DNA of 62,740 bases from Nanobdellota archaeon (lineage in GTDB: Archaea; Nanobdellota; Nanobdellia; Woesearchaeales; GW2011-AR9). The stretch lies in contig JAUYPX010000039.1 in the NCBI GenBank assembly GCA_030697505.1, forward strand, positions 1-62,740, written 5' to 3'. Made by a program: the position numbers and the translations under genes. Below, one piece after another: positions 7,994 through 53,174 of the stretch (the stretch's first letter is position 1; each line of letters begins with the position of its first letter). Below the pieces are notes generated by a model, which was given only the letters and a program-made list of their open reading frames with translations, was not told the origin of the DNA and did not search any database.

Positions 7994-8362
7994 TTATTTT
8001 AAGAACATCACATTAGGTAAATCTTTAAATTCTTTGTCTCCGGTTAAAAAGAGGATATTCTTTAATCTAGCTACTTCATAACCAATACAATCTGCATAAG
8101 ATAATTTCTTTTTTTTGTGTACGAACCTAAACAGCATTGCTTTTGTTATGATTTCCCCATCTACGTCTATTACATATGATAATAATGTCTTCAACATCTC
8201 ATCAGCCATTACTTTTCCCATTTCGTTCAATACTACGTAGTACACCTCGGCAACATTAAAGATGGTGGTTATTCCAGTGTGCTCTTCAAAATAAGATTTA
8301 TAATGCACGTTACCATGAAAATATTCTATAAATGCAAAACTATCATAAAAATACTTGCTCAT
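7994..8362 (-). CDS. vapC: PIN-domain toxin (VapC-like)
   Basis: 122 aa. Acidic residue near the N terminus (FYDSFAFIEY), C-terminal LSYADCIGYEVA...FLTGDKEF. 4-bp overlap with the antitoxin gene. Confidence 0.65.
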   Translation of the reverse strand: MSKYFYDSFAFIEYFHGNVHYKSYFEEHTGITTIFNVAEVYYVVLNEMGKVMADEMLKTLLSYVIDVDGEIITKAMLFRFVHKKKKLSYADCIGYEVARLKNILFLTGDKEFKDLPNVMFLK

Positions 8363-8571
8363 TCCCAGCCTTCTCTCATTTCATCTTTCAGTTGTTGGGT
8401 AGATTTGGCAAATTTCATGGAATTAAAGAACGTCTTGATATCTGCTACTTTTTTAATCTCTATGATTACAGTTTGATTTTCACTGAGATGCTCTTGATCT
8501 ATAATTTTTTTTGGAATAGCTATCCCTAAAGAATTTCCCCATTTCCTGGTTTGAACTTCTATTTCAGCCAT
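8359..8571 (-). CDS. vapB: AbrB/MazE/SpoVT-type antitoxin (VapB-like)
   Basis: VQTRKWGNSLGIAIPKKII is a typical swapped-hairpin AbrB motif. Start/stop overlap with the PIN gene. Confidence 0.65.
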   Translation of the reverse strand: MAEIEVQTRKWGNSLGIAIPKKIIDQEHLSENQTVIIEIKKVADIKTFFNSMKFAKSTQQLKDEMREGWE

Positions 8572-8645: not shown

Positions 8646-8807
8646 ATGGCTAAATGCAGCATCTGCGGCAGCAAGATAGCGGAACTAATCCTGGAAAAAA
8701 TCAAAGGTACGGTAGTCAGGAAACCAGGTTCCAGCAAGCAATATCCGGTCTGTTTCGAGTGTCAGAAGAAATTTCCAACGAAAGAAGAGTTGCTGCAAAA
8801 ATTGTGA
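8646..8807 (+). CDS. 53-aa zinc-ribbon protein (CxxC...CxxC)
   Basis: Manual translation gives MAKCSICGSKIAELILEKIKGTVVRKPGSSKQYPVCFECQKKFPTKEELLQKL. Below the track size cutoff. Confidence 0.45.
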   Translation: MAKCSICGSKIAELILEKIKGTVVRKPGSSKQYPVCFECQKKFPTKEELLQKL

Positions 8808-8810
8808 GTT

Positions 8811-8830
8811 TCGCCCTTATAGCTCAACGG
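8811..8830 (+). other. Exact 20-nt duplicate of the 5' end of tRNA-Thr (acceptor 5' strand, D stem 5' strand and part of the D loop)
   Basis: TCGCCCTTATAGCTCAACGG at 8811-8830 is identical to 9100-9119. Confidence 0.9.
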
Positions 8831-9049
8831 GAAATGTCACGCCACGTGAAAACTGAAAGAATATCAGTTTTCTGTGCACGAAAACCAACAACGATTTGTT
8901 TTCGGCACTGAAATGAGATATTTTTCTCATTTCATGTGCAGAAATGTGATAGTTTTCGCATTTCTTGCATTTCCAAGGCGAGTGCGCTTCACACTCGAAG
9001 GGACAACGATCCCTTCGGTGTACCGATGGGATGATATCCCATCCAGTAC
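8830..9049 (+). ncRNA. Multi-hairpin structured RNA module, copy A (alpha, beta, gamma hairpins plus 3 further hairpins)
   Basis: Closing stem GGAAATG 8830-36 / CATTTCC 8968-74 encloses four hairpins. They are GAAAACTGA-aagaata-TCAGTTTTC (8848-72), GAAAACCAA-CAACGA-TTTGTTTTC (8880-8903), TGAAATGAGA-TATTTT-TCTCATTTCA (8909-34) and GAAATGTG-ATAGTTTT-CGCATTTC (8941-64). Three more follow: CGAGTG/CACTCG (8979-97), GAAGGGA-CAACGA-TCCCTTC (8997-9016) and GTAC..GATGGGA-tgata-TCCCATC..GTAC (9020-49). Confidence 0.6.
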
Positions 9050-9101
9050 TTCGTTCAGCAGCACAACAAATAAAAATAAACACATTTTTGTAACAATTAT
9101 C

Positions 9102-9193
9102 GCCCTTATAGCTCAACGGCAGAGCGACTGCTTCGTATATGCGTAATGCGTCAAAAGAGCAGTAGGCTGAGGGTTCAAATCCCTCTAAGGGCT
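9102..9193 (+). tRNA. tRNA-Thr(CGU) with a 20-nt intron at the canonical 37/38 position
   Basis: Acceptor GCCCTTA/TAAGGGC 7/7. D stem GCTC/GAGC, D loop AACGGCA. Anticodon stem ACTGC (9127-31)/GCAGT (9159-63). Loop TTCGTA + intron 9138-9157 + A. Variable AGGCT. T arm GAGGG-TTCAAAT-CCCTC. An AT-rich TATA-like box lies about 27 nt upstream (9070-9080). I could not draw a clean BHB by hand. Confidence 0.85.
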
Positions 9194-9195
9194 TT

Positions 9196-9284
9196 ACTTT
9201 CATCGTGAGGTCGAACGTAGAGAGTACCTCACTTGAGAACGATTCGCCTAGTGTAACTGGCGTTCAAATCCCTCTAAGGGCTTT
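9196..9284 (+). other. 66-nt element homologous to the tRNA-Phe T-loop intron, followed by an exact 23-nt duplicate of the tRNA-Thr 3' end
   Basis: GTTCAAATCCCTCTAAGGGCTTT at 9262-9284 is identical to 9173-9195. The intervening sequence contains TCGTGAGG-T-CGAACG-TA-GAGAG, compared with TCGTGAGG-AAA-CGAACG-A-GAG in 41974-42020. Confidence 0.75.
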
Positions 9285-10342
9285 TATTTTCTTCTCTCCA
9301 ATTTCCTAAAATACTGCTTTGCTTTCGGCAATATTTTCTTCTTCAGTTCTTCATCAAAGGGCAGTCCTTCTACTAATTTTTGAACATCTACTTCTGACAA
9401 CTCTGTAAAATTTCCCTCTAGTTTTCTGCCCGCTTTTTTGCATCCTTCTTCCAGCTCTTGCGCATATTGAGAATTAAAATCTAAAAAAACCATAAACCTG
9501 CTGAAGCCATTCGCTCCGGCGCGCAAATATAGTTCTACCTCTTGCACTCTCTCTTGAACTAAAGCGACTTTGATCTGTACTTCTGGACAAGCAATCCTGA
9601 TCTTAGCGATCCACCAAGCCATATAATCTGGATTCGGCGGCGGAACTTTATCGAACACCGTATTCTCCTGCGGCTTGAGAAAACATAACTGCACTTTTTC
9701 GATATTATATTCTTTTATTTTTTCGATGACTATGTCTACATCTTCCTTTCGTTCACCGATCCCTAAAATAATAGTTATCAGTTTTTGCAATCCTTGCTCC
9801 TGCAAATTCTCTAAAAATTTCATCAATGATCGTAATGGTTTAGAAGGGCAGATAAAATTGTGCAATTCTTCGTCAAAAGATTCAATCGCTGAACCCATTC
9901 CAGAAACGTATGGTTTGAGTTTGATGATTTCGCTTTTTGCGTAAGGTCCGAAGTTCATCATAATTTTTTCGCCGGTAATCACATTTATTTTACTGATAAG
10001 ATCAATCAGATAATCAGTAGACTCTACTCGCAAGCCTCCGGTGATGTAACCTACTTTCCAGCCCATGGCCTTGCACACTAACACTTCAGCAAGTATTGAG
10101 GCGGGGCTGCGGATTGCGGTCGGTTTTTCCCTGGGCTCATGCTTTGGTCTTGTAGACAAAAAACAATATTTGCAATCGGCAATGCTGCAGGTCCAATTGA
10201 TGAAGATGGAGCGTTCAAAATAGGCCGTAGATGGAAAATGCTTCTGGTAGATTTTTCCAGCTTCTGGCAGCAAGGCAGCCAATTCCTTTTTGCGTACAGT
10301 ATGGGTGCGATTATTCTCTGTAATCTGGGTTAAAAAATCCAT
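9284..10342 (-). CDS. Radical SAM protein, biotin-synthase-related (BioB/COG2516-like)
   Basis: Cys cluster CSIADCKYC (C-x4-C-x2-C as translated in the track). GYITGG SAM-binding-like motif. TIM-barrel-sized. Confidence 0.6.
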   Translation of the reverse strand: MDFLTQITENNRTHTVRKKELAALLPEAGKIYQKHFPSTAYFERSIFINWTCSIADCKYCFLSTRPKHEPREKPTAIRSPASILAEVLVCKAMGWKVGYITGGLRVESTDYLIDLISKINVITGEKIMMNFGPYAKSEIIKLKPYVSGMGSAIESFDEELHNFICPSKPLRSLMKFLENLQEQGLQKLITIILGIGERKEDVDIVIEKIKEYNIEKVQLCFLKPQENTVFDKVPPPNPDYMAWWIAKIRIACPEVQIKVALVQERVQEVELYLRAGANGFSRFMVFLDFNSQYAQELEEGCKKAGRKLEGNFTELSEVDVQKLVEGLPFDEELKKKILPKAKQYFRKLERRK

Positions 10343-10409: not shown

Positions 10410-10540
10410 GGAACACGAAAACAAACGACAATTTGTTTTCGGTTCTGAAATGTGGTAGTTTCAAGAAATGTGAAAAATATCCCATTTCTGAACTGAAAAT
10501 TTGATCTTTGTCAATTTTCATGTTCCGCATTTCATGAACA
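10410..10540 (+). ncRNA. Multi-hairpin structured RNA module, copy B (intergenic, no tRNA sequence nearby)
   Basis: GAAC..GAAAACAAA-CGACAA-TTTGTTTTC..GTTC (10411-45). TGAAATG (10446-52)/CATTTCA (10528-34) closes a domain with TAGTTT at 10456-61. That domain encloses GAAATG...CATTTC (10465-88) and TGAAAATT...AATTTTCA (10494-10520). Confidence 0.5.
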
Positions 10541-41754: not shown

Positions 41755-42033
41755 GCCCAGGTCGCTTAACCTGGTATAGCGAGAGCGTGAAAATCAACAC
41801 AAGAAATCAAACAAAGATTTGATTTCTGTGCAAAAATGTGATAGTTTTCACATTTTTTGCAACGATTGATTTTCTGCTCTGAAATTAAGTAGTTTCTTAA
41901 TTTCATGAGTCTGAAACTCCGGGCAAGGAGTCCAGAAAACTCTTTTGTCCTGACCGACTTTGTGGGTTCGAATAGTTTCCGAAACTCGTGAGGAAACGAA
42001 CGAGAGCGGATCTCGACTTTCCCACCCTGGGCG
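41755..42033 (+). tRNA. tRNA-Phe(GAA) interrupted by a 124-nt structured intron in the anticodon stem, a 21-nt 37/38 intron, a 47-nt T-loop intron and 13 unexplained extra nt before the T stem
   Basis: Acceptor GCCCAGG (41755-61)/CCTGGGC (42026-32) 7/7. D arm GCTT-AACCTGGTA-TAGC. Anticodon stem AGAG (41782-85) + T (41910) pairs with ACTCT (41939-43), 5/5. Loop CTGAAA (41911-16) + A (41938). T arm GTGGG-TTCGAAT (41962-73)...CCCAC (42021-25). A near-BHB can be drawn for the 37/38 intron: 4-bp helix TCTG 41910-13/CAGA 41933-36 flanked by AAA bulges. Confidence 0.75.
41786..41909 (+). ncRNA. Multi-hairpin structured RNA module, copy C (intron 1 of tRNA-Phe)
   Basis: GAAAATCAA (41789-97)/TTGATTTTC (41866-74) closes a three-way junction. 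The junction holds GAAATCAAA-CAAAGA-TTTGATTTC (41803-26) and AAAAATGTG-ATAGTTTT-CACATTTTT (41832-57), with CAACGA in the junction strand. TGAAATTAAG-TAGTTT-CTTAATTTCA follows (41880-41905). Intron ends are ambiguous by 3 nt because of a GAG repeat. Confidence 0.65.
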
Positions 42034-50892: not shown

Positions 50893-50959
50893 CTGCTTTT
50901 TCCACCAGTATATTTCACTGGTGGTGAATCAGTGATTTCACCTAGGCTGGAAAAAGCAG
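50893..50959 (-). ncRNA. Y-shaped hairpin element adjoining module D
   Basis: CTGCTTTTTCCA (50893-904)/TGGAAAAAGCAG (50948-59), 12 bp, encloses CCACCAGT/ACTGGTGG and GGTGAA/TTCACC. Strand inferred from module D. Confidence 0.4.
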
Positions 50960-50964
50960 GGTCG

Positions 50965-51203
50965 GAAAACTGACCAGAGCGAAGCATGAAATAAAGAAAC
51001 TACTTTATTTCAGCTCAGAAAAGAAATCGTTGTTTCTTTTCTTGAGCGAGTATGCATGAAATTTGAAAACTATCAAATTTCAGCACTGAAAACTAATCGT
51101 TGTTAGTTTTCATGTGCCGCTGGTCCACTCGGAAACAAAGTTTCCGGTGTGCCAGAGAAATCGCTGTTTCTCTGTGCATATTGGCCAGCGGTGGTCAGTT
51201 TTC
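50965..51203 (-). ncRNA. Multi-hairpin structured RNA module, copy D (239 nt, minus orientation), closed by a 12-bp stem that overlaps the stop codon of the transglutaminase-like gene
   Basis: Closing pair 50965-76/51192-203 (GAAAACTGACCA/TGGTCAGTTTTC on the minus strand). On the minus strand the hairpins are TGAAATAAAG-TAGTTT-CTTTATTTCA (50987-51012), GAAAAGAAA-CAACGA-TTTCTTTTC (51018-41), TGAAATTTG-ATAGTTTT-CAAATTTCA (51057-82) and TGAAAACTAA-CAACGA-TTAGTTTTCA (51087-112). CCGCTGG/CCAGCGG (51117-23/51185-91) encloses CAGAGAAA-CAGCGA-TTTCTCTG and GGAAAC-ttt-GTTTCC. Confidence 0.6.
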
Positions 51204-53174
51204 TTTGACGAATAAGTTAATCAGCCAGTTTGAAAGCATTTTTACCTTGTCAGCGAAAGAATTCCCTTCTGCTTTCACTATTATTTTTTGCTCGGTAGAA
51301 TAGGCCTTTCCCTGCCGATCCTCCCAGTTGGCAGTAATAATGAACTCAGTATTCCTACTCAAGCTTTGCCCATCGACAAGATAACTTATCTTTTCTTCCG
51401 GTCCTAAGCCGGGAATATCCCAAACACTCTTCGCTCCTGCGCCAGAAATAGCCAAGGCAAGATTTCGTGGCTCTGCAAAGGAATCTTTTTGGAGCGATAT
51501 TTCGATGGTTGGAGAATCGCCAAACTGGATCACTGGGGGATATTTCGCAGAAATAGTCAGCTGTGGAGTATCCAATACCGCATATTCCAGGGGCATTTTT
51601 TTCTCCACTTCCTTATTTTCCGCACGTACGATCACTTTCTGCCAGCCGGCATTTTCGCCCTTTACCGTGACTTCTATGTTTTTCTTTTGATTGATGGGCA
51701 GATCCGCGGTCTCGCAGGCATCTCCGACGCAGAAAGTAAGACTTTTAAAGTTTGTATTTCCGGTGTTCTTGATGGAACAGGTGACCGGCGCTTCTTCTCC
51801 CAGCATGATCTCTTTTTTATACTGGCAATCGAAAGTGATCTTTTGCGAGTAACTTTTCTCTTCATCTTGGATGCTCAGCTCCTCGATCTCTGCTTTAGAA
51901 TAGGTGTTTTTTCCCACTTGGGCGGTAAAAGTGTCATCAACAGAAGCATTTTTCTCAGAATAGATTCTGACCGGGAAAGTATAGACATAATTCTCCTGAA
52001 GATTTTCCGGTATTTTGACCATCCAAAAAGTTTCCCGCACTTCCCGAGGAGGGAGAAGGATATTTCTTCTGTTCCTGCCGATCACTTCTACTTCCTTGGG
52101 GGCAGCCAAATTAAGGGCGGTAGCAGCATAATAATGAGCATTATTCCTGACCACGCCTTTCACTAAATTGTAACTTCCAAAACCGACTTCATGGGCCAGG
52201 ATTTCCTGTTCCAGCTGGATCTGCTCAGGAACAGCAGCACCTTCTTTCTCAACCGTAACCTCAAGGCCTAATTTTCCTTTCTCCAATTTCACTCCATCGG
52301 AAACCCATTCATATTTTACTGCCGGTTCGGTGGGATCGAAACTGTCTCTCAAGCGCAGGTGGGTCACATCAACATAACCGTATTGATTGAAAGTGACATC
52401 AAAGCTTACCCAGCCTATCTCGGGGAAGTACACTTCCGCCCACCCATGCCCGGCCCAATTTGAACCGACCGCATTGACGACTTCTTGGCTGTTAGTATAC
52501 GAAATTCCGGAAACGAACCGTGCAGGGATCCCTAAGGATCTAGCCATAGCTACAAATAAGGAAGTCATCTCATCGCAGACACCTTGCTTATTCTGGAGAA
52601 CCCAGCTTCCTTTCTGAGAAGCGGCGCTGGTGACCGTGTTGAGATCATACTCAATATGTTCTTCCACCCAGCTGGCCAGATTGAATGCTACTTTGAACAG
52701 ATCGTCTTCTCCTTCTGCCAATTCAGCCGCTTTAGCGATCACTGCCGGATGATCGGAATCGATAGTTTCAGTCGGCTCTAGATATTGTTCTAATCCCTGC
52801 ACATCCTGCGGCCGCAAAGGAAAAGAGATTTTTTCTTTTACTGCCAAGCGCTGGTTCTGCGTCGCTATCAATGCAGCGTATCCGAACTTTTTCTTCTCAA
52901 TCTGCCCATCATTCCAGAAAAAAGAGACCATCTCATCTTTTACTATTCCTTCGCTGTCCCATAGGATAATCTTTTGTCGTTGACTTTCTTGGGGATAGAG
53001 AAACAGGTCGGCAGTAACTTCTTTTATATCGGCCCCGCTTTTGGTCGGCACTAACTCCAAAGAACCCTCTACGTTCAATCGTAATTCCAACGACTCCATG
53101 GAATAGAGATCATTTTCCGCAAAGGATGAAGAGACAAATAACATTAACAACAATAAAACAAGCCGCCATTTCAT
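51195..53174 (-). CDS. Secreted transglutaminase-like cysteine protease-fold protein with C-terminal CARDB-like domains
   Basis: Signal MKWRLVLLLLMLFVSSSFA. QGVCDEMTSLFVAMARSLGIPARFVSG, GHGWAEVY and FDVT form the Cys-His-Asp core. Confidence 0.8.
   Translation of the reverse strand: MKWRLVLLLLMLFVSSSFAENDLYSMESLELRLNVEGSLELVPTKSGADIKEVTADLFLYPQESQRQKIILWDSEGIVKDEMVSFFWNDGQIEKKKFGYAALIATQNQRLAVKEKISFPLRPQDVQGLEQYLEPTETIDSDHPAVIAKAAELAEGEDDLFKVAFNLASWVEEHIEYDLNTVTSAASQKGSWVLQNKQGVCDEMTSLFVAMARSLGIPARFVSGISYTNSQEVVNAVGSNWAGHGWAEVYFPEIGWVSFDVTFNQYGYVDVTHLRLRDSFDPTEPAVKYEWVSDGVKLEKGKLGLEVTVEKEGAAVPEQIQLEQEILAHEVGFGSYNLVKGVVRNNAHYYAATALNLAAPKEVEVIGRNRRNILLPPREVRETFWMVKIPENLQENYVYTFPVRIYSEKNASVDDTFTAQVGKNTYSKAEIEELSIQDEEKSYSQKITFDCQYKKEIMLGEEAPVTCSIKNTGNTNFKSLTFCVGDACETADLPINQKKNIEVTVKGENAGWQKVIVRAENKEVEKKMPLEYAVLDTPQLTISAKYPPVIQFGDSPTIEISLQKDSFAEPRNLALAISGAGAKSVWDIPGLGPEEKISYLVDGQSLSRNTEFIITANWEDRQGKAYSTEQKIIVKAEGNSFADKVKMLSNWLINLFVKEN

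Follow-up and report, generated by a model that had tools for sequence, protein, structure and literature searches.

Gain of non-canonical introns and splitting of tRNA genes in Archaea are mainly proposed to result from the integration of mobile DNA and subsequent recombination – an idea that has very few natural examples. She et al. (2001) reportedly described integration into archaeal tRNA genes as 'gene capture', and Fujishima et al. (2010) are said to have treated the non-canonical bulge-helix-bulge (BHB) introns of archaeal tRNA genes together with their proposed transposition. These introns and their proposed transposition have been reviewed (PMC4033280, PMC4090602), and integration of the SSV1 and pNOB8 types is associated with attachment-site (att) duplications at archaeal tRNA genes (PMC3293823, PMC8371274). 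In Caldiarchaeum subterraneum, the tRNA-Thr(GGU) locus (Sugahara et al. 2012) has a 5' fragment comprising positions 1–27 that lies 1.8 kb upstream of a reconstituted, intron-bearing gene; the ~1.8 kb insert contains a putative recombinase gene and occurs at six genomic sites, and the locus is polymorphic among related genomes (PMC3293823). The authors of that study proposed attP × attB integration followed by recombination and tied the events to intron gain and to the origin of split tRNA genes (PMC3293823). Here, we analyze a tRNA-Thr(CGU) gene from a DPANN archaeon (Woesearchaeota/Nanoarchaeota) that is bracketed by copies of its own 5' and 3' ends. The gene lies within a 62,740-nt contig (JAUYPX010000039.1 of assembly GCA_030697505.1), the whole of which we refer to as the window.

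We read the outer copies of the tRNA ends as att-like footprints of small, integrase-less cassettes inserted at the D-loop and T-loop, and assign this reading a probability of roughly 55%.

The ends of an intact tRNA-Thr(CGU) gene are duplicated around non-coding inserts

The intact, functional tRNA-Thr(CGU) gene occupies 9102–9193 on the plus strand (Rfam tRNA, 62 bits). Its sole interruption is a 20-nt intron at the canonical 37/38 position (9138–9157, plus strand) with a relaxed BHB motif – three of four central pairs, five outer pairs, and five inner pairs. ARAGORN, with its intron mode on or off, called 9102–9193 tRNA-Arg(TCG) and gave a clean tRNA-Thr(CGT) cloverleaf once 9138–9157 was taken out; the Arg call is thus an artefact of the intron. 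Several orthologous tRNA-Thr genes were similarly miscalled as Phe, Ser, or Ala.

Exact and approximate searches of the 62.7-kb window bore out the duplications described in a first-pass annotation of the sequence. The 20-nt sequence TCGCCCTTATAGCTCAACGG occurs exactly only at 8811–8830 and 9100–9119, the 23-nt sequence GTTCAAATCCCTCTAAGGGCTTT exactly only at 9173–9195 and 9262–9284, and neither repeat extends by a further matching base on either side. No additional copy of either was found by the approximate searches, and by our estimate fewer than 1e-4 chance repeats of 20–23 nt would be expected within 500 nt.

The distal 5' copy (8811–8830, plus strand) comprises tRNA positions 1–19 (8813–8830) and two upstream nucleotides. 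It begins 5 nt past the stop codon of a 53-aa zinc-ribbon open reading frame (ORF; 8646–8807, plus strand). On the other side of the gene, the proximal 3' copy (9173–9195, plus strand) comprises positions 53–73 and TT, forms part of the active gene, and is followed by the T-run TTTACTTT, while the distal 3' copy (9262–9284, plus strand) comprises positions 53–73 and a T-run. Both distal copies are orphans: we read them as the 5' and 3' ends that the resident gene originally had, left as attL-like and attR-like footprints, respectively.

Orthologous loci are polymorphic for the inserts

We compared ~90 related loci (labeled L001 and so on) that lie behind the same 53-aa zinc-ribbon ORF, 80 of them further metagenomic loci collected with an alignment of that ORF; ~5 kb was sampled per genome. 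The first-pass annotation had proposed a search of related genomes for empty sites, and such sites are present: four loci (L007, L008, L013, L014) have a plain compact gene. Nine have the 5' copy and its accompanying element only (L003, L004, L006, L018, L019, L021, L026, L040, L070), two have the 3' duplicate only (L020, L076), and both duplicates are found in the window, L001, L023, L025, and L043. Some loci are layered – L003 has two tandem units, L076 has three 3' copies, and L070 and L064 have an outermost fragment that is a third, degenerate one from another allele. In L045 the fragment is truncated, and in L078 an old fragment (positions 1–22) directly precedes an A/T box and the tRNA of another allele.

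The orphan copies lie where the ends of an uninterrupted gene would be. Distal 5' copies begin 5–30 nt past the ORF stop, like the tRNA start of the four empty-site loci, and the distal 3' copy of L001 is ~28 nt from the downstream ATG, the spacing seen in empty-site relatives. Most distal copies match the tRNA allele of their own host with 0–2 mismatches (GCCCTTA, GCCCCTG, GCCTCTG, GCCTCCG, GCCCCCG). Changes in outer copies include G18T and C3A in L004, A14T in L025, and G10A in L018; both L001 and L020 have A58C in their distal 3' copy. L023 combines two alleles: its outer 5' (GCCCCTGTGGCCCAGCGG) and outer 3' (...CTCCCCAGGGGC) copies are mutually complementary and match the compact tRNA allele of L022, while its inner tRNA exons show no difference from those of the window, even though the ORFs of the two loci are only ~76–78% identical (DNA).

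Across loci, the duplications are 12–37 nt long and always reach the gene end; the repeats of L019 and L070 also take in 19–27 nt of upstream spacer. The junctions fall at the same tRNA positions, 19/20 and 52/53, again and again in alleles that have diverged widely. The window and L018, which are closest relatives (89% flank identity), have the same element type, but element state can differ between loci with similar ORFs: L008 is empty and L001 doubly occupied at 91% identity, and L003 and L019 differ at 90%.

The 5' insert contains a covarying structured element

The first-pass annotation had divided the 269 nt between the two 5' copies into a hairpin array, module A, and an AT-rich spacer. 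This was partly right, the actual parts being four: a conserved core, an insertion at 8845–8969, a second insertion at 8993–9049, and a TATA-like box at 9068–9081. The core, which both insertions interrupt, consists of hairpins P1 and P2 and one strand of a helix, P0, and in related loci this conserved structured element (the up-element) always follows the 5' duplicate. P1 starts at 8829–8844 (plus strand) with the 5' strand GGAAATG, the loop TCACGC, which contains ACG, and the first two nucleotides (CA) of the 3' strand. The remainder of that strand (TTTCC) and the P2 hairpin AGGCG-AGTG-CGCTT are at 8970–8992 (plus strand), and the 3' end of the core, TTCGTTCAGCAGCAC, is at 9050–9064 (plus strand).

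RNAalifold predicted P1 independently, and P2 as well; P2 is also seen in alignments A2 and A3, and its motif is matched by R1, a covariance model of the core. In long-type elements RNAalifold further predicted P0 as a closing helix, in which CGTTCAGC (9052–9059) pairs with the D-arm strand of the distal copy, GCTCAACG (8822–8829). The P1 stem covaries: 95.5% of its cells were paired in alignment A3 (11 sequences), two pairs had changed on both sides, and none of 500 shuffles reached the score. Stem variants include GAAATG/CATTTC, CAAGTG/CACTTG, GAACTG/CAGTTC, CAAATG/CATTTG, and GCCAA/TTGGC. The loop that they enclose is nearly invariant, being TCACGC or, in other lineages, TTACGC or TTACGA, and contains the ACG triplet in 15 of 17 copies. 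Position 13 of the distal copy has become G in L003a, L003b, L018, L021, and L040, creating a GCTG/CAGC pairing with the core.

Neither the gathering nor a permissive threshold of Rfam gave any match other than tRNA in the window region and eight further loci. A scan of 408 kb with R1 matched only the tRNA-Thr locus and one stand-alone P1/P2 copy in L003 (406–445, minus strand; GAACTG-TCACGT-CAGTTC CCAGACGGG...). This copy is intergenic with no adjacent tRNA, and its loop has changed from C to T, with a corresponding change from G to A in the GGCG segment that comes next.

The two insertions are less widespread than the core. The 125-nt insertion inside P1 (8845–8969, plus strand), a lineage-specific array of four hairpin repeats that corresponds to module A, is missing from most orthologous elements and is shorter in L018. 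The second (8993–9049, plus strand) has two hairpins and, among the loci read, is shared by the window with L018 alone. Module A-type hairpins have been gained or lost between these two loci and are differently placed in L001 and L003. Related hairpins are present elsewhere in the window, at 10414–10499, 41822–41907, and 50985–51114, and behave like small expansion or insertion modules of non-coding regions.

The TATA-like box AAATAAAAATAAAC (9068–9081, plus strand), as read from the sequence, is centered ~28 nt upstream of the tRNA +1 position. A/T boxes precede the inner tRNA at a like distance (~28–33 nt) in L001, L003a, L003b, L018, L021, and L023, and those that follow long-type cores are AATTAAAAATAAC, ATTTAAAAAAC, or, in the window, AAATAAAAATAAAC. 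We take the A/T box for a putative promoter that the 5' cassette would carry. Short-type elements (L004, L006, L019, L026) lack it, and there the native pre-tRNA spacer is repeated instead.

The 3' insert shares motifs with a tRNA-Phe gene

The 66 nt between the 3' copies (9196–9261, plus strand), the down-element, comprise a GTGAGGT/ACCTCAC hairpin, CACTTGAGAAC, and a CGCC/GGCG hairpin; they contain no ORF and have no Rfam match. The element is also present in relatives: it is 91–97% identical among the window, L001, L020, and L023, where the neighboring ORF is 76–83% identical (DNA).

Two motifs, TCGTGAGG and the 11-mer CACTTGAGAAC, have exactly two occurrences apiece in the window: one lies in this 66-nt spacer and the other in the T-loop insert or trailer of a tRNA-Phe gene. 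The spacer had accordingly been termed a homologue of the Phe intron. The two shared motifs are real, but in tRNA-Phe the 3' exon sits between TCGTGAGG and CACTTGAGAAC, and the Thr and Phe arrangements are therefore not equivalent.

This tRNA-Phe(GAA) gene (41755–42033, plus strand) was overlooked by both ARAGORN and Rfam and was read by hand. It has three inserts: an intron of ~113 nt at the canonical position, with module A-type hairpins and closed by GAAAATCAA/TTGATTTTC; a second insert of ~85 nt that falls in the variable region; and, in the T-loop, the one at 41974–42020. The hand model would place G at position 73, where the usual base is A.

A second kind of 3' spacer (GAGCAAAGCGAAAG...) is found in L076 (~100–330 nt past the ORF), L025, L043, and L045. 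Here, the distal 3' copy (10–13 nt) is the 3' strand of a long hairpin, followed by a T-run, and the 5' strand of the hairpin covaries with the host tRNA (CTGGGG/CCCCAG, TGATGGTT/AACCATCA). In L076, three 3' copies are of this kind.

The compact gene is the functional gene

Two gene models, a compact gene at 9102–9193 and a long gene at 8813–9282, had been described as giving the same mature tRNA, and both indeed yield an identical 73-nt product. The functional gene is the compact tRNA-Thr(CGU) gene, spliced only at its 20-nt canonical intron. Its cloverleaf is intact and uninterrupted except by that intron, so that the splicing assumed by the long model is not needed, and the gene is framed by the TATA-like box at about –28 and the T-run directly after 9193.

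It is highly improbable that the locus is instead a long three-exon gene that starts at 8813 and has two introns, one of 289 nt in the D-loop and one of 89 nt in the T-loop, each including a copy of the neighboring exon. Such a gene would have a product identical to the compact tRNA, and the T-run after 9284 is the stronger one. True D-loop and T-loop introns in relatives also show that the endonuclease handles non-canonical sites, and the host is therefore able to splice at such positions. However, a BHB scanner applied to every register of the two periods (289 and 89 nt) found none, in either repeat, that combined central, outer, and inner helices. The scanner has low specificity, many random sites scoring 14–17, but it recovered the canonical intron at 9138–9157 and the true T-loop intron of L051, and for the junctions in question its negative outcome is clear. 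Because the repeat strands are identical, a 4-bp central helix could form only if they were palindromic. In relatives, outer copies carry G10A as well as A14T, G18T, and A58C, the latter three at positions invariant in functional tRNAs, and the chimeric product of the L023 outer exons, which derive from a different allele, would mispair in both the D-stem and the T-stem. By sequence reading, a TATA-like box is absent ~27 nt before 8813, unlike before 9102, and the intact gene with its own T-run is nested inside the long one. The inserts of the window are not of the true-intron kind: they need not be spliced and probably cannot be.

True T-loop introns of tRNA-Thr(CGU) are found at 59/60 in L003, L004, L012, L051, and L058, ending in ...TGAAAG|T with a good BHB, and true D-loop introns at about 20/21 in L025, L032, and L061; they occupy the same two sites as the cassette insertions of the window. 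A homology of the core to the D-loop introns was considered and rejected: L061 and L025 share TTACGC/GCGTAG with the L040-type core, a 6-bp helix that is not significant. A split or permuted tRNA gene was likewise rejected, as the outer fragments cover only positions 1–19 and 53–73, positions 20–52 are present only in the inner gene, and there is no BHB motif.

Proposed cassette insertion and competing explanations

The first-pass annotation had also proposed that the duplications are insertion footprints. Consistent with this, the inserts are flanked by repeats identical to the tRNA ends, the proximal copies complete the gene, the orphan repeats lie beside the original flank at the positions of the tRNA ends of empty-site relatives, and those relatives and the loci with an insert on a single side show the expected states. 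The layout is the one that Campbell-type integration leaves when the element carries a copy of one tRNA end. Since the inserts are tiny and non-coding, we infer non-autonomous cassettes or minimal remnants of att arms.

Two small non-coding cassettes would have entered the resident gene, one in the D-loop after position 19 and the other in the T-loop before position 53, displacing the original gene ends that now form the outer 20-nt and 23-nt copies. Each cassette would carry or have regenerated the displaced tRNA end, restoring an intact gene. The 3' cassette would come after the T-run terminator, while a cassette on the 5' side must supply a promoter – and the long type, consisting of the structured core (P0, P1, P2) and its own TATA-like promoter, appears to do so. 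The cassettes may have originated in rare site-specific or illegitimate events in the two blocks of the gene that are conserved most, the D-loop and the T-loop. Their tRNA-identical arms could then have let them spread from genome to genome, through recombination into the same gene. Replacement by a foreign allele would be represented by L023, L070/L064, and L078. Deletion between the repeats would account for loss and regenerate empty sites, and cassettes would stack in layers (L003, L070, L076) as orphan copies decay.

Several observations weigh against this proposal. The 269-nt and 66-nt inserts contain no plausible ORF or integrase, and there is no recombinase among the neighbors of the locus – the zinc-ribbon ORF, a VapBC pair, and the radical SAM gene – beyond which no search of the window for recombinases was made. 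The junction sequences have no recognizable recombinase core site. A search of viral contigs with the down-element pattern gave no match, and no free or viral copy was found. The core is nearly locus-specific, with the single stand-alone copy in L003, unlike a multi-copy mobile element, and its conservation could stem from function rather than recent spread. The short-type elements have no obvious internal promoter. Furthermore, distal copies track the host allele even where alleles are very different, acceptor positions 1–7 of the distal copy changed twice compared with ~12 times for the D-arm (our count), and position 13 became G at least four times, each change strengthening P0. Allele tracking, acceptor constancy, and the position 13 changes could be signs of a functional RNA under selection, with the distal copy as a part of it.

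Other origins for the inserts were rejected. Forty-six pattern matches of the up-element in viral contigs all lack the P1 stem and are chance matches, which excludes them as a sign of viral or plasmid origin, and the R1 scan, which in 408 kb (~5 kb per genome) found only the tRNA-Thr locus and one stand-alone copy, does not fit a multi-copy mobile element. A miniature inverted-repeat transposable element or insertion sequence with target-site duplication does not fit an essentially single-locus insert with no inverted repeat at its ends and a duplication of variable length (12–37 nt). Finally, the same architecture is present in independent assemblies from several projects, and it is therefore not an assembly artefact.

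The main rival, a functional cis-acting RNA in which the distal copies, P0/P1/P2, and the 3' spacer are selected within a co-transcript of the zinc-ribbon mRNA and tRNA-Thr, seems to us doubtful as an explanation of the locus. Such an RNA might serve in processing or folding, by competing with or sequestering the strands of the acceptor and the D-arm; it might instead be a leader/trailer stem or respond to tRNA. The distal copies would stay identical to the tRNA since they must pair with the other tRNA strand. P1 covaries, and P0 uses the distal D-arm strand and is improved by the repeated change of position 13 to G; in the distal copy, differences are fewer at acceptor than at D-arm positions; the elements are more conserved than the adjacent ORF; and the motif is almost limited to the tRNA-Thr locus. 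The start of the tRNA 5–38 nt past the ORF stop fits co-transcription, and the minimum free energy structures from RNAfold pair the outer 5' with the outer 3' copy and the up-element with the down-element in both the window and L001. In nearly every copy, the loop of P1 includes ACG, which is the Thr codon that a CGU anticodon reads, and in L043 and L025 the loop TTACGA is complementary to six nucleotides of the anticodon loop. However, close relatives lack the element, which is therefore dispensable, and the 5' and 3' modules occur separately. Outer copies have decayed, been truncated (L045), or belong to another allele (L023, L078), and the stand-alone copy of L003 is not beside a tRNA. Pairing with the GGCG/GCGT segment further downstream accounts for the ACG triplet as well, and a recombination site formed by a DNA hairpin would covary too. 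A narrower version, in which the distal 5' copy and P0/P1/P2 are no scar but form an undescribed archaeal RNA module that recognizes tRNA-Thr(CGU) through its ACG loop and acceptor-strand mimicry, strikes us as a long shot. Of the features of a T-box-like leader, the ACG triplet in the P1 loop is seen, no NCCA-pairing site or switch was identified, and there is no Rfam match. If this version is true, the module would be self-targeting or responsive to tRNA, and might be an extant intermediate on the way to tRNA introns and split tRNA genes.

Relics of local duplication without mobility are also an unlikely source of the orphan copies. Tandem duplication, slippage, or unequal crossing-over would have produced the repeats, hairpin repeats would have filled the spacers later, and similarity among genomes would reflect vertical inheritance with occasional loss through the repeats. 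The upstream spacer included in the repeats of L019 and L070 resembles that of a tandem unit, L003 and L076 contain tandem units, empty sites can be restored when the DNA between direct repeats is deleted, and the closely related window and L018 share an element type. Yet the inserts have a unique core that derives from neither the tRNA nor the flank, and the outer fragments of L023, L070/L064, and L078 come from an allele other than that of the inner gene. Recurrence of the 19/20 and 52/53 junctions across very divergent alleles also weighs against local events, as does a distribution of elements that does not follow ORF or flank similarity (L008 versus L001; L003 versus L019).

Genomic neighborhood and other features of the window

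Orthologues of the zinc-ribbon ORF, for which the only Pfam match is a weak one to Zn_ribbon_3, are present in 87 of 87 related loci. The ORF is immediately upstream of tRNA-Thr(CGU) in the relatives that bear the radical SAM gene and in most of the 80 further metagenomic loci; where the tRNA adjoins the ORF, a tRNA-like 5' end begins 5–38 nt past its stop. This order and spacing is seen in ~60 divergent loci. As there is usually no room for a promoter between the two, the arrangement suggests that the zinc-ribbon mRNA and tRNA-Thr(CGU) form a conserved co-transcript in these DPANN archaea.

A minus-strand pair (7994–8571), VapC (PIN domain) with an AbrB/MazE-type antitoxin, lies immediately upstream of the zinc-ribbon ORF. 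On the other side, the radical SAM gene (9284–10342, minus strand) adjoins the tRNA-Thr locus. Its orthologues are 74–89% identical and come from metagenome-assembled genomes labeled Nanoarchaeota, Woesearchaeota, or Nanoarchaeia; two further such genomes are labeled Methanosarcinales, probably through mis-binning. Exact-protein look-ups with the zinc-ribbon and radical SAM proteins returned no contig on record.

Of the additional module A-type hairpins, the array at 10414–10499 is intergenic, between the radical SAM gene and the next ORF. Those at 50985–51114 fall within a ~250-nt structured region (50955–51205) that contains several hairpins of the family (minus-strand match), has no Rfam match, and is closed by a 12-bp helix between GAAAACTGACCA (50965–50976) and TGGTCAGTTTTC (51193–51204). 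A tRNA-like candidate for a hidden gene at 52466 (minus strand) was rejected as coding sequence.

The locus also illustrates an annotation hazard, since ARAGORN assigns the tRNA-Thr gene to Arg and multi-intron neighbors are missed. The conserved structured motif has no Rfam family and is undescribed.

Comparison with known systems

Integron cassettes are small promoterless or minimal units whose recombination site, attC, is a covarying hairpin. By analogy only, a hairpin recombination site would explain the covariation of P1 at the DNA level. Unlike integrons, the locus has no integron integrase, attI, or cassette array, and the link to a tRNA gene and the end duplications are foreign to integrons.

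In integration of the SSV1 and pNOB8 types, the copy of a tRNA end carried by the element yields a complete tRNA gene and an orphan repeat that runs from the crossover, often in the T-loop, to the end of the gene. As in those systems, the orphan copies described here lie beside the original flank, and the 3' side (23 nt, from G53 to just past the gene end) fits the geometry. Unlike those systems, there is no integrase or cargo, the inserted body measures tens to hundreds of nucleotides, and no free element is known. Targeting of the 5' part of the gene through the D-loop, with a putative promoter supplied by the insert, would also be unusual.

The inserts resemble non-canonical archaeal introns in their D-loop and T-loop sites, in the presence of true introns at like sites in relatives, and in the motifs shared with the tRNA-Phe insert. 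They differ from such introns in that those of the window lack a BHB and include a duplicate of the neighboring exon.

The closest described case is that of Caldiarchaeum, which likewise has a tRNA-Thr 5' fragment and inserted DNA upstream of a restored gene (PMC3293823). Here, the inserts are far smaller (66–289 nt), have no ORF, contain a covarying hairpin motif, and flank both ends of the gene – and the same locus is affected across many divergent Woesearchaeal lineages, sometimes in layers. Within one DPANN clade, empty, 5'-occupied, 3'-occupied, doubly occupied, layered, and allele-replaced states accompany intron-bearing genes at the same D-loop and T-loop sites. This full series of states makes the integration model testable by comparative and population genomics. 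The locus thus presents the disruption of a tRNA gene by inserted DNA in a new form, with an unusually complete natural series of intermediates.

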